Source: Nitrospirota bacterium (lineage in GTDB: Bacteria; JACPQY01). From it: a DNA stretch of 59,716 nt. A program made the translations under genes and the position numbers. The notes beneath the pieces were generated by a model. That model was not told the DNA's origin and made no database searches. It worked only from the letters and a program-made list of their open reading frames with translations. Positions 22,195-47,738 of the stretch are shown here, in pieces; position 1 is the stretch's first letter; each line of letters starts with the position of its first letter. The stretch is taken from positions 1 to 59,716 of the forward strand of contig JACPAV010000022.1 in NCBI GenBank assembly GCA_016180645.1. The letters run 5' to 3'.

Positions 22195-23088
22195 ATGGAC
22201 ATTCACCAGCTCCGAACATTTCTCGCGGTTCTGGAACACGCCAGCTTTTCCGGTGCGGCGGAAGCCATCCACCTGACGCAATCCACCGTCAGTTTCCACA
22301 TCAAGTCGCTGGAAACCGAGGTCGGAACGCGGTTGATTGATCGCCGCCGCGGAAAAGCGCGTCCCACCGCTGCCGGCCGCACCCTCCAGGAATACGCCGG
22401 CAAGATCGTCTCCCTCCGTGGGGAAGCCATGGCCCGAATGCAATCCGAGCAGCGCGGTGAAGTAGGAACCGTCACCGTCTCGGCCTCCACCATCCCGGGC
22501 GAATACCTTCTCCCCCCCTTTCTCGCCTCGTTCAACCGACTCCATCCAAAGGTCCAAATCGACCTCCGGATTTCGGATTCTCAGCAGGCCCTCCAGGAAC
22601 TCCTCGGCGAGAAATGTGATGTCGCCCTGCTTGGATCGAGGCCGCCGGCCGCCCGGGTGACCTCCGAGCCCTTCGCCCCGGATGACCTCATCCTCGTTGC
22701 GCCTGCTCCCAACCCGTTCACCCCCTGGCCCCGCGTCACCCATGCCGAACTCATGCACGTTCCGCTGATTCTTCGGGAAACCGGCTCCGGAACTCAACGA
22801 GCCACCCTCGAATTCTTCAGGAAGGCTCATCTCGACCCGGGCCGATTCACCCACGCGCTCCGCGTGGGCAGCACCCAGGCCGCCAGGCAGAGCGTGATCG
22901 CGGGCGCCGGCATGACGTTCATTTCGCGATGCGCCGTAGAGACCGACCTACGGGCCGGCGTTCTCACTCGCATCGCGTGTCCCAGGACCCCCATCCGGCG
23001 GCACATCTTCCTCGCCCGGTTGAAGAACGCGACTCTGTCTCTGCCGGCCCGGGCACTCATCGATTTCCTCCGATCACACATTCGATAG
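22195..23088 (+). CDS. LysR family regulator resembling the selenium-metabolism-associated / CysL-like subgroup
   Basis: HTH MDIHQLRTF...SFSGAAEAIHLTQSTVSFHIKSLE; ASTIPGEYLLP; LILRETGSGT. The subgroup call is from recalled motif similarity only. Confidence 0.88.
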   Translation: MDIHQLRTFLAVLEHASFSGAAEAIHLTQSTVSFHIKSLETEVGTRLIDRRRGKARPTAAGRTLQEYAGKIVSLRGEAMARMQSEQRGEVGTVTVSASTIPGEYLLPPFLASFNRLHPKVQIDLRISDSQQALQELLGEKCDVALLGSRPPAARVTSEPFAPDDLILVAPAPNPFTPWPRVTHAELMHVPLILRETGSGTQRATLEFFRKAHLDPGRFTHALRVGSTQAARQSVIAGAGMTFISRCAVETDLRAGVLTRIACPRTPIRRHIFLARLKNATLSLPARALIDFLRSHIR

Positions 23089-23093
23089 TTGAC

Positions 23094-23108
23094 ATCGATA
23101 ATATCGAT
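23094..23108. promoter_or_regulatory. LysR-type T-N11-A palindrome
   Basis: ATCGAT-AAT-ATCGAT perfect inverted repeat, about 10 nt upstream of TTGACG (23118-23123). Confidence 0.65.
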
Positions 23109-23154
23109 ATTACTTTCTTGACGGCGGATCTCCATCAAAGATCAAATACTCCCC

Positions 23155-24195
23155 ATGTCTACTCGATGGACGACCCCCCGCCCCTGGACCCGCCCTTCGG
23201 GGGCTGGATGGCGGGTTGGGCTTGGGTTCCTCGCGGCCTTTTCCTTTGCGGCCGCGTCTGCCCGGGAGCCGGAAATCGAAACGCGCTTGGCCCCCCGGTC
23301 GCGCACATTCGAATTCCGTTACGAGGTCACCCTTCCCGCGCCGGCGGCAGGCACGGCCAAGCTGGAGGCATGGTTGCCTCTTCCCATGGAGGACGATTTC
23401 CAGAAGGTTGAGAAAATCCGAATCGAGGGGGCGGCGGCCGTCGTCGGACGCGACCCCAAGTACGGCAATTCCATGGCCTATATCCGTTTCGATTCAAAGA
23501 ACGGCGCCGCATCCCCCGTCCAAGTCACCCTAACCGCCGACATCACCCGCCTCGAACAAAGGCCCCGTCGAGCCGAGCAAGATGGGGCCGGGCCGACCGC
23601 GGTTCCTGCGCTCTTTTTGCAACCTTCGGAAAAGATGGTTCTGACCGATCCCATCCGAGCCCTGGCGCGCAAGGTGACGCGAGGGAAGGCGTCGGACCTC
23701 GAAAAAGTGCGGGCGCTGTACGAATACGTCGCCGCCTTCATGCGATACGACAAGTCCGGCAAGGGCTGGGGCGAAGGCGATGTAAGATTCTGCCTCCGGG
23801 AAGCGCGCGGAAACTGCTCCGATTTCCATTCCCTCTTCGGTTCCCTCGCCCTAGCCCTCGGGATCCCCGTCCGATTCTCCATCGGCTTCCCCCTGCCGCC
23901 GGACAAACCGGAAGGCGTCATCGGCGGCTACCATTGCTGGGCCGAGGCCTACGTCGCCGGGACGGGCTGGCTTCCGGTGGACATCTCGGAGGCGGACAAA
24001 CATCCGGAGAAACACGATTACTACTTCGGGGCACTGGACGAAAACCGGGTCAGATTCTCCGAAGGACGCGACATTCCCCTCGAACCACCTCCGGCCTCGG
24101 CCAAGGCGCTGAACTTCTTCATCTATCCCCACGTGGAGGCGGACGGCCGGCCGGTGAAGGACGTCACCACGCGGTTCTCCTTCCGGAATCTCTAG
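23155..24195 (+). CDS. Exported transglutaminase-like domain protein
   Basis: Signal peptide; catalytic-triad motifs GNCSDFHSLF, YHCWAEAY and WLPVD. Confidence 0.9.
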   Translation: MSTRWTTPRPWTRPSGAGWRVGLGFLAAFSFAAASAREPEIETRLAPRSRTFEFRYEVTLPAPAAGTAKLEAWLPLPMEDDFQKVEKIRIEGAAAVVGRDPKYGNSMAYIRFDSKNGAASPVQVTLTADITRLEQRPRRAEQDGAGPTAVPALFLQPSEKMVLTDPIRALARKVTRGKASDLEKVRALYEYVAAFMRYDKSGKGWGEGDVRFCLREARGNCSDFHSLFGSLALALGIPVRFSIGFPLPPDKPEGVIGGYHCWAEAYVAGTGWLPVDISEADKHPEKHDYYFGALDENRVRFSEGRDIPLEPPPASAKALNFFIYPHVEADGRPVKDVTTRFSFRNL

Positions 24196-24196
24196 C

Positions 24197-24291
24197 GACG
24201 GGGCCGTAGCTGGGCTACCTCCCGACTGCAAATCGGGCAGCGGTTGACTTCAACGTCGCCGGGTGGGTTCGACTCCCATTCCCCGTCTGCA
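24197..24291 (+). tRNA. Non-canonical tRNA-Sec-like tRNA with GCA (Cys) anticodon and U discriminator (selC*-like tRNA-Cys or tRNA-Sec variant)
   Basis: Acceptor GACGGGG/CCCCGTC; D arm GTAGC-TGG-GCTAC; anticodon arm CCCGA-CTGCAAA-TCGGG; ~24-nt variable arm; T arm GTGGG-TTCGACT-CCCAT plus one extra T; discriminator T24288; CCA not encoded (GCA follows). Confidence 0.8.
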
Positions 24292-24390
24292 CGTTCGATC
24301 CCGACCCCCACGATGGGGGAAGTGCCGCGGGAGGGCAGGATGCCCGGAGCGGCCCATCCCCCGTCTCCGCCGATTTACGCTTCTCCCTAT

Positions 24391-24426
24391 TATCTGTAAC
24401 ATCTGATATATCTGATTACACAGATA
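24391..24426. promoter_or_regulatory. 9-bp-period ATCTG repeats upstream of the AbrB/HgcC-like gene (probable operator)
   Basis: TATCTGTAA-CATCTGATA-TATCTGATT followed by the inverted ACAGATA. Confidence 0.55.
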
Positions 24427-24433
24427 TATCAAA

Positions 24434-24480
24434 GGCCATGTTCCATGCCGCGCCGTCCATGGCGCGGCGACCGATCATGG
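24434..24480 (-). repeat. 47-bp dispersed hairpin repeat (copy B)
   Basis: Reverse complement is 41/47 identical to 7398-7444. Confidence 0.85.
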
Positions 24481-24513
24481 CCCCTTACCATCCTATGAAA
24501 GGGGAGGTGTTCG

Positions 24514-24795
24514 ATGAAACGGACACGATCGAAAACCGAAGGCGCGTGCTGCGCGCCGGGAACCGACATCACGGGTTGTTGCAAAGTGGAGGCCGTCGTC
24601 CCCATCGATGAGCGGGGACAAATGGTCCTCCCCAAAGAGGTCCGGGACAAAGCCGGGATCAAAGCGGGCGACAAGCTCGCCGTCATCAGTTGCGGGACCG
24701 GCAGTCCCATCGGCTGCCTCTGCGTCGTGCGGGCGGACGCCATGGGCGGGATCCTGAAATCCTTCCTCGGCCCCCTGCTCAAGGATCTGGTGTAG
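24514..24795 (+). CDS. AbrB/MazE/SpoVT-type regulator of the HgcAB-associated (HgcC-like) family
   Basis: GCCKVEAVVPIDERGQMVLPKEVRDKAGIKAGDKLAVISC; two CC pairs; SD GGAGG. Confidence 0.8.
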   Translation: MKRTRSKTEGACCAPGTDITGCCKVEAVVPIDERGQMVLPKEVRDKAGIKAGDKLAVISCGTGSPIGCLCVVRADAMGGILKSFLGPLLKDLV

Positions 24796-46352: not shown

Positions 46353-47738
46353 ATGACGCGAGCCGAAGAGAATCCTCTCAGGACCCTTCCGCAGGTTGAG
46401 ACGCTAGCCAATGAAGTGCTGGAGTCCTACCCGGCGCTGCTGAAGAGCGTGGCCGTGGATGTGGCCCGTGAGGTGATCGAAGACGCGCGCACACAACTCC
46501 GAAAGGGGCGCAACGGGCTGACGGAAGGCGTATTGCTCCGTCGAGCCGGGGACCACGTTCGCAATCTTCTCTCCGGCGGGCTCCGGCCCGTGATCAACGC
46601 CACCGGAATCATCATTCATACGAATTTGGGCCGGGCGCCGCTTTCTGCAGAAGCCGTCCAGGAGGTCGTGCAGACCGCCGGGAGTTACTCGAACCTGGAA
46701 TTCGATCTCACGCGCGGTGAACGCGGGGAACGCATCAACGCGGTCCGCTCTCTACTGCATGCCGTGTGCGGAGGCGAGGATTCGCTTGTCGTCAACAACA
46801 ATGCGGCGGCCGTCCTCCTCGTTCTCGCAGCGCTGGCCAAAGGAAAAGAAGTCGTCGTCTCGCGCGGCGAACTCGTCGAGATCGGTGGCTCCTTCAGAGT
46901 TCCGGAAGTCATGGAGCAAAGCGGGGCAATCCTTCGTGAGGTCGGCACAACCAACAAGACCCGATTGAAAGACTACGAACAAGCAATCTCCCCGGCTACG
47001 GCCCTCATGATGAAAGCCCACCGGAGCAATTTTCAGGTGGTCGGCTTCACGGAGGAGACTTCGCTTGAGGAACTGGTCGAGCTGGGCCGCAAGAAGAATG
47101 TTCCGGTCTACATGGACCTCGGGAGTGGTGCAGTCCAGCCCTTCACCTTTCCGGGCGTCTCCCGGCGGGAACCGCTGGTCCGTGAGATCGTTTCACAGGG
47201 CACGGATCTCGTGAGCTTCAGCGGCGACAAGATGCTAGGCGGCCCCCAAGCCGGCATCATCATCGGCACGTCCAAGCTGATCCAACAAATCGCTCACCAC
47301 CCGCTGTACCGAGCGCTCCGACCCGACAAAATGACCCTCGCCGCATTGGCCGGCACCCTCCGGCTCTGCCTCACGGGCGGGGAGGCCGCATCCCAAATTC
47401 CTGTCACCGCCATGTTGAACGCTCCTTTGGACGAGCTCCGCCGTCACGCCGAGCAGGTCCGACGAACGGTTCTCAAATCGCGGAAAGACTTGGACTTGGA
47501 AATCGTCGAAGACACTTCCTATGCCGGCGGGGGCGCCCTCCCGATGGAGGCTCTCCCGACCCTTGCCTTGCACCTCAAGCACCCCTCGCTCTCGCCCAAT
47601 TCAATCTCCGATGCACTTCGGATATCCGATCCCCCCGTGATCGGCCGGATCTCGGATAACCGCTTTCTCCTCGACCTCCGGACCGTGTTCCCACGGGAGA
47701 TTCCCGATCTCGCGCGGGCAATCATCGCGCTTTCGTAG
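46353..47738 (+). CDS. selA: L-seryl-tRNA(Sec) selenium transferase
   Basis: VINATGIIIHTNLGRAPL, YSNLEFDL, VVNNNAAAV, SRGELVEIGGSFR, EVGTTNKT, PLP-lysine FSGDKMLGGPQAG. Confidence 0.97.
   Translation: MTRAEENPLRTLPQVETLANEVLESYPALLKSVAVDVAREVIEDARTQLRKGRNGLTEGVLLRRAGDHVRNLLSGGLRPVINATGIIIHTNLGRAPLSAEAVQEVVQTAGSYSNLEFDLTRGERGERINAVRSLLHAVCGGEDSLVVNNNAAAVLLVLAALAKGKEVVVSRGELVEIGGSFRVPEVMEQSGAILREVGTTNKTRLKDYEQAISPATALMMKAHRSNFQVVGFTEETSLEELVELGRKKNVPVYMDLGSGAVQPFTFPGVSRREPLVREIVSQGTDLVSFSGDKMLGGPQAGIIIGTSKLIQQIAHHPLYRALRPDKMTLAALAGTLRLCLTGGEAASQIPVTAMLNAPLDELRRHAEQVRRTVLKSRKDLDLEIVEDTSYAGGGALPMEALPTLALHLKHPSLSPNSISDALRISDPPVIGRISDNRFLLDLRTVFPREIPDLARAIIALS

Follow-up and report, generated by a model that had tools for sequence, protein, structure and literature searches.

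A probable selC*-type cysteine tRNA gene in a Nitrospirota genome that encodes the complete selenocysteine machinery

Which amino acid is carried by a tRNA that has the body of a selenocysteine tRNA and the anticodon and discriminator of a cysteine tRNA? The question is raised by a gene at positions 24197-24288 (+) of the window, by which we mean the whole 59,716-nt stretch of DNA analysed here (contig JACPAV010000022.1 of the Nitrospirota bacterium assembly GCA_016180645.1). A preliminary description of the locus had left two answers standing, either a cysteine carrier of the selC* kind or a tRNA on which serine is converted to selenocysteine (Sec). As described by Mukai et al. (NAR 2017, PMC5389517), selC* tRNA-Cys is a tRNA-Sec-like molecule that has U73 and either GCA or UCA as its anticodon, is hosted by Clostridia, Bacilli, Thermodesulfobacteria, Thermodesulfovibrio and delta-proteobacteria, and occurs only in genomes that also have selA, selB, selC and selD, an account that a 2020 review (PMC7609411) repeats; our literature search for functional work on these tRNAs after 2017 yielded reviews only. 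On the evidence presented here, we consider it likely that the Nitrospirota locus encodes a functional selC*-type cysteine tRNA, in which a Sec architecture is joined to the cysteine identity set U73, G34-C35-A36 and G1:C72.

Structurally, the gene is well formed and measures 92 nt to the discriminator, and its call draws on ARAGORN, Rfam model RF01852, a cloverleaf minimum-energy fold and segmentation against 19 relatives. ARAGORN, run on the window, reports a tRNA-Cys(gca) at 24197-24288, and the Rfam tRNA-Sec match at these positions, the sole Rfam match within the window, lies barely above threshold in the Infernal comparison that the preliminary description had proposed (47.2 bits, where the gathering score is 47; E 2.2e-06), so that its expectation that standard scanners might miss the gene or label it a pseudogene did not hold. 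The minimum-energy fold is a five-arm cloverleaf (-39.6 kcal/mol, z -1.93, equalled by 8 of 200 shuffles), with standard or G.U pairs at 7/7 positions of the acceptor, 5/5 of the D stem, 6/6 of the anticodon stem and 5/5 of the T stem. Read from the 5' end on the plus strand, the acceptor 5' strand GACGGGG with C8 (24197-24204) faces 24280-24287; its first seven pairs, GACGGGG (24197-24203) with CCCCGTC (24281-24287), are standard, and the eighth is a C.U mismatch. The D arm (24206-24218), evident in both the sequence and the minimum-energy fold, has a 5-bp stem GTAGC/GCTAC and a 3-nt loop TGG, and the anticodon arm (24220-24239) has a 6-bp stem in which 24220-24225 pair with 24233-24237 and A24239, leaving C24238 bulged, around the loop CTGCAAA (24226-24232) with the anticodon GCA at 24228-24230. 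There follow a long variable arm of 23 nt (24240-24262), predicted by the minimum-energy fold to form a hairpin of seven pairs with one bulged U, and a T arm (24263-24279), GTGGG/TTCGACT/CCCAT with G.U as its first pair, placed by sequence and by segmentation of the family. The acceptor 3' strand TCCCCGTC ends on the discriminator U73 (T24288; 24280-24288 together, from the sequence and the sorting of the family), so that 13 nt (24275-24287) separate the T loop from the discriminator. No CCA is encoded, the bases after the discriminator being GCA. In its architecture, the tRNA thus combines a 13-position 8/5 branch and a 6-bp anticodon stem with a compact D arm and a long variable arm; the acceptor, D arm, anticodon loop, T arm with its G.U pair, 13-nt spacing and U73 of the preliminary description were all recovered in place, and the variable arm that it had put at about 24 nt segments as 23 nt.

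The base on which the GCA anticodon hinges, G24228, which the same description had singled out for checking, is a G in the Logan contigs of four runs, all belonging to a single study, with 0 differences over 23900-24600, and therefore stands; the study probably sequenced the source sample itself, so that the runs do not count as evidence independent of the assembly, and since these are contigs, not raw reads, rare variants would stay hidden in them. The runs listed for this stretch include no RNA run.

The genome in which the tRNA resides (65 contigs, 4.7 Mb, 97% completeness, 60.8% G+C; assembly G000) holds 104 tRNA genes in all. Among these are a canonical tRNA-Sec gene, selC, with UCA anticodon, G73 and an encoded CCA (C57:131478-131573, 73.3 bits), and a canonical tRNA-Cys of 75 nt with a variable region of 4-5 nt (C18:118103-118177), while two further tRNA-Cys lie inside tRNA arrays. 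The selenocysteine synthase gene selA, said in the preliminary description to be 22 kb away, is indeed located within the window at 46377-47723 (+) and is a single copy in the genome (TIGR00474, 556 bits, above cut-off); the genome further encodes one selB (C63:2892-4778, 369.8 bits) and a selD (356.9 bits) with one in-frame TGA. There is one full-length cysS (C30:17192-18601), which covers profile positions 1-464 of 466 and has therefore kept the anticodon-binding part of the enzyme. Thus, of the genes that the preliminary description had named as worth seeking, canonical selC(UCA), one selB and selD are present, but neither selB* (or any second SelB-class gene) nor a second CysRS (cysS*) appeared above cut-off in the genome. 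SepRS was likewise not found in the genome, and a SepRS route was rejected for that reason.

With regard to the 3' end, 45 of the 48 non-array tRNA genes have no encoded CCA, so that its lack is the rule in this genome and gives no indication of decay for the tRNA at 24197-24288; the three non-array genes with CCA include the canonical selC and the canonical tRNA-Cys. The arrays themselves (G000 C21:21779-25649 and C29:62471-67783) are dense, comprise 30 and 26 genes that partly duplicate each other, and include a tRNA with the anticodon TTA (labelled 'Stop' by ARAGORN) and a 93-nt tRNA(ATT).

Relatives were surveyed with the pattern CTGCAAA, then 22-42 nt, then GGGTTCGANTCCC, in one genome per species, which gave at least 80 loci, a sample biased to its two motifs. 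Among the matches listed, ARAGORN called a GCA tRNA of at least 80 nt in 33 of 80 loci. Sorted by discriminator and geometry, and again among the matches listed, these 33 comprised 19 with U73 and a 13-nt spacing from T loop to discriminator, five with G73 in Burkholderiales-labelled MAGs, five with a Sec-like D arm in Acidobacteriota-labelled MAGs, one (L105) with 12 nt after the T loop and three with ordinary D arms. Only the 19 U73/13-nt tRNAs were taken further, and their 13-nt geometry is therefore theirs by selection. Taxonomically, these 19, among the matches listed, carry the labels Nitrospirota or Thermodesulfovibrionales (11), Bacillota (4, including Sulfobacillus thermotolerans and an Ammonifex MAG), Actinomycetota or Thermoleophilia (3) and unidentified (1). 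The U73/GCA tRNAs of 8/5 geometry in MAGs labelled Actinomycetes, Thermoleophilia and Actinomycetota (L038, L108, L107; a further one is in the unidentified L044) come from groups that are not among the selC* phyla named in the available text of PMC5389517. The Acidobacteriota-labelled tRNA(GCA) (L059, L083 and L091, also L033 and L047) combine a long variable arm with a Sec-like 6-bp D stem and a TGG or CGG loop; L059, L083 and L091 have U73 with an ordinary 12-nt (7/5) acceptor/T branch, and L033 and L047 did not parse cleanly.

Segmentation of 20 sequences, the 19 relatives and the tRNA at 24197-24288, by their anticodon and T loops yielded an acceptor of 8 positions and a T stem of 5 bp; the anticodon stem has 6 bp, the outermost of which is formed across a single bulged base. 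Across the 20, compensatory changes affect acceptor pairs 2, 3, 6 and 7 and all but one of the six anticodon-stem pairs. The pair across the bulge is one of those that covary: 12 sequences have C-G there, 3 (with the present tRNA) U-A, 2 G-C and 1 G.U, and 2 have a mismatch. At the eighth acceptor position, 15 of the 20 have an A-U pair, 1 has C-G and 4 have a mismatch, namely the present tRNA (C.U) and 3 of the 19 relatives (C.A in L038, A.G in L073 and L088). The 5-bp D stem with TGG loop recurs, with compensatory changes, in L095, L044, L107, L068 and L081. Judged from these aligned sequences, the fold of the tRNA is the family's 8/5 geometry with its eighth acceptor pair mismatched (C.U); the bulged 7/8 or 7/6 helix, fitting neither 8/5 nor 8/4 cleanly, that had been suggested at the outset gives way to this reading. 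A second view of the same stems came from an alignment (A4) of 19 rows, 18 of them distinct (one duplicate), which excludes L068 and L108 and leans towards the structure of the covariance model to which it was fitted: 97.2% of its cells pair, both partners have changed in 14 of the 24 pairs (5/6 in the anticodon stem, helix 3), and its covariation score of 0.545 compares with 0.165 for shuffles, of which 0/500 reach 0.545, and with at most 0.161 when partners are slid.

Evolutionarily, the core of the tRNA is closest, among the matches listed, to the selC* gene of a Bacillota-labelled MAG (L088; 44 of 54 positions identical), and is identical at 34 of 54 positions to the genome's canonical selC; a recent duplication of the genome's own selC was rejected on this comparison. 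The ends GACGG...CCGTC-U are common to the present tRNA, L088, L073 and L095, and the T arms of the tRNA and of the genome's own selC are one loop base apart. When six Nitrospirota-labelled selC* genes were used to build a covariance model (R1), it gave 54.4 bits to the tRNA and 54.4 bits to the canonical selC of the genome, and because these scores tie, it is the identity bases and the geometry, and not a family-specific score, that place the tRNA in selC*. A metagenome search with a family-specific pattern returned three stretches, none of them an ARAGORN tRNA, one of which (L160) is a selC*-like tRNA running off its contig start. In the one other genome of the phylum that was compared (G001, 84% complete, n=1), there was no tRNA of the selC* kind, and neither selC nor selA was found; their joint absence fits a link to the Sec trait, as a single case, and since this sole phylum mate is without the tRNA, conservation within the lineage does not add support. 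As a separate observation, one Thermodesulfovibrionales-labelled MAG carries a second Sec-shaped tRNA(GCA) at L068:6179-6327 (-), 4.6 kb from its selC* gene, with approximately 64 extra nt in the variable arm; it scores 47.0 bits with the Rfam tRNA-Sec model and was missed by ARAGORN.

Compared with the published class, the tRNA at 24197-24288 is, by its sequence features, a member of selC* tRNA-Cys. It has the tRNA-Sec-like fold (a 6-bp anticodon stem with a bulge, a 23-nt variable arm and a 13-nt stretch from T loop to discriminator, with the eighth pair C.U), U73, the GCA anticodon and G1:C72, its genome has complete selA, selB, selC and selD, as in the description of the class in PMC5389517, and the gene content around it is of an anaerobe type. 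According to the same source, selB* is found in two delta-proteobacterial subgroups and cysS* in one of those, and the secondary arrangement of selC* is described as particular to each phylum; the downstream selB* and cysS* of the delta-proteobacterial subtype are missing here and the neighbours are unrelated, a feature that marks the subtype, not the class, and the branch is 8/5 with a mismatched eighth pair where PMC5389517 describes a bulged 8/4 for that subtype. Among Bacillota-labelled relatives, L088, L073 and L095 (the last being Sulfobacillus thermotolerans) share the 13 nt after the T loop and the bulged 6-bp anticodon stem. L095 additionally has the 29-nt 5' part and the D arm (5-bp stem, TGG loop) in common with the present tRNA, but its eighth pair is Watson-Crick, whereas the D stem of L073 and L088 is of the classical 6-bp form with a 4-nt loop; CCA is encoded in L088 and L095 and replaced by CCG in L073, unlike in the present tRNA.

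Other known tRNA kinds fit less well. Canonical tRNA-Cys has a 7/5 branch, a short variable region and a standard D arm, and at 92 nt against 75 nt in the genome's own copy (on C18) the present tRNA differs in all of these. With bacterial tRNA-Sec (RF01852), it shares the 8/5 branch, the long variable arm, the 6-bp anticodon stem and a score past the Rfam threshold, but it has U73 instead of G73, GCA instead of UCA, a GACG instead of a GGAG start and a smaller D arm; G73 and the acceptor bases of a SerRS substrate are thus lacking, and the role of decoding Sec in this genome falls to the separate selC(tca), with selD using TGA. Allo-tRNAs, described in PMC5389517 as having 12-bp acceptor/T branches (8/4 or 9/3), resemble it in their long variable arm, Sec-like compact D arm and occasional U73, but here the branch has 13 positions, with 5 bp in the T stem; allo-tRNAs have varied anticodons and are interpreted as acceptors of Ser or Ala. 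On many phage contigs in IMG/VR (e.g., L165, L173, L189, L211, L224, L240, L181, L192 and L231), there are tRNA(GCA) of 84-93 nt, mostly with U73, whose long variable arm, ordinary D arm and 7/5 branch make them class-II-shaped cysteine tRNAs distinct from selC*. A phage origin of the present gene was rejected because the viral contigs carry this different kind.

Functionally, the ends of the molecule and the company that it keeps bear on whether cysteine or Sec is carried. The U73 of the tRNA is like the discriminator of canonical tRNA-Cys, and its GACG start and U73 stand against the GGAG start and G73 found in all four tRNA-Ser of the genome and in its canonical selC. Among the matches listed, a canonical selC (tca, G73) accompanies the U73 tRNAs of this shape in 5/5 other genomes checked, or 6/6 with this one, whereas G73 tRNA(GCA) are the sole tRNA-Sec match above cut-off in 5/5 genomes, MAGs whose completeness is not known. 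The latter MAGs (L037, L040, L049, L056, L082) bear the labels Rubrivivax, Burkholderiaceae or Burkholderiales; this sequence pattern suggests that Sec may be encoded at Cys codons in the Burkholderiales-labelled group, and it fits the recoding of Cys codons to Sec by natural tRNA-Sec with sense anticodons as outlined in a review (PMC10778597, citing Mukai 2016). That the U73 copies sit beside a canonical selC and the G73 copies stand alone favours a Cys carrier over a Sec carrier. The long variable arm is the main recognition feature for SerRS, and some serylation of the tRNA at 24197-24288 is therefore possible from its sequence.

In one alternative, the gene would encode a second selenocysteine tRNA: after charging by SerRS and conversion of the serine by SelA, it would be taken by SelB to SECIS-marked UGC/UGU, recoding a sense codon to Sec. 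The Sec-type fold with its long variable arm, the passing Rfam tRNA-Sec score and the presence of selA, selB and selD agree with such a role, for which the sense-anticodon tRNA-Sec in print (PMC10778597) and the five Burkholderiales-labelled G73 tRNA(GCA) among the matches listed offer models. Against it, natural GCA-anticodon tRNA-Sec replace the canonical selC in those genomes, whereas this genome retains its canonical selC(UCA) and has a selD with an in-frame UGA; moreover, its ends are not those of the genome's own SerRS substrates, and its D arm (5 bp, 3-nt loop) is unlike that of the genome's own selC. We regard this alternative as very unlikely, and of the two answers in the preliminary description it is the cysteine carrier that persists, on the strength of the class match in U73, GCA and G1:C72, the separate selC and Sec genes, the non-SerRS ends and the 6/6 versus 5/5 split.

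Concerning the surroundings of the gene, a transglutaminase-like ORF of 346 aa lies immediately upstream (23155-24195, +; Pfam PF01841, 1.2e-25), with its stop codon ending one base before the start of the tRNA. A promoter scan of 23000-24600 found a sole sigma-70-like site, at 23073-23102, before this ORF, and co-transcription of the ORF and the tRNA is therefore possible. Downstream, a short interspersed repeat that is not part of the tRNA occupies 24301-24340 (21 matches in blastn-short against the genome) and contains a G/C hairpin, and a second short repeat occupies 24432-24484 (57 matches in the same search); Logan contig depth has sharp peaks at both. Across nine other selC*-type loci, no conserved neighbours were found except within close pairs, and no partner gene conserved beside the tRNA was found across the compared loci; in the phylum mate G001, the upstream ORF is matched weakly and at the level of a domain (31% over 124 residues). 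As the neighbours differ between lineages, context gives no functional hint.

Two further alternatives concern what the gene does, if anything. The tRNA might be a decaying or silent selC* relic without function, a reading that would account for the mismatched eighth acceptor pair, the lack of an encoded CCA, the marginal Rfam score, the absence from the sole phylum mate compared and the repeat element directly downstream. Yet the other 23 stem pairs are all intact, a mismatch at the eighth pair is found in three of the 19 relatives as well, CCA is absent from nearly all non-array tRNA genes of the genome, and U73, GCA and G1:C72 have been kept, so that we consider decay highly improbable. A Cys-tRNA that acts outside bulk translation, either as a regulator or decoy that binds SelB or as a cysteine donor for a tRNA-dependent enzyme, is unlikely in our estimation but has its own points of contact with the data. 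With a normal tRNA-Cys and two array copies in the genome, the extra tRNA is not needed for decoding. In E. coli, a 13-position acceptor/T branch reportedly distinguishes ligands of SelB from those of EF-Tu (Baron and Bock 1991), and the branch found here would be of the SelB-ligand type. Non-translational roles were left open for the new tRNAs in PMC5389517, where, on the other side, a delta-proteobacterial selC* tRNA(UCA) is described as active in translation in E. coli, and the missing conserved partner gene likewise weighs against such a role.

We posit a route by which a functional selC*-type cysteine tRNA could serve translation. The gene would be transcribed, possibly together with the upstream transglutaminase-like gene; CCA would be added post-transcriptionally, as it must be for nearly all tRNAs of the genome; the single full-length CysRS would charge the tRNA with cysteine; and the charged tRNA would decode UGC/UGU. 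From the perspective of delivery, a variant of this route can be imagined for a genome without SelB*, in which the selC*-type tRNA(GCA) would be carried not by EF-Tu but by the ordinary SelB to SECIS-marked UGC/UGU, where cysteine, or Sec after occasional serylation, would be inserted depending on selenium supply. We hold this variant to be quite unlikely, but if it were true, it would constitute a natural Cys/Sec switch at a sense codon.

For annotation, the comparison offers a simple rule, drawn among the matches listed from only 6 and 5 genomes, respectively: U73 copies are extra to a canonical selC, and G73 copies replace it. More broadly, selC* tRNA-Cys are among the few natural tRNAs that join the tRNA body of one amino acid to the identity of another. 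The tRNA at 24197-24288 would provide a clean example of this class from a very sparsely sampled lineage, in a genome with the full Sec machinery and without a dedicated SelB* or CysRS*, which may be the sharpest setting in which to ask whether EF-Tu or SelB carries such a tRNA and why it is retained beside a normal tRNA-Cys.
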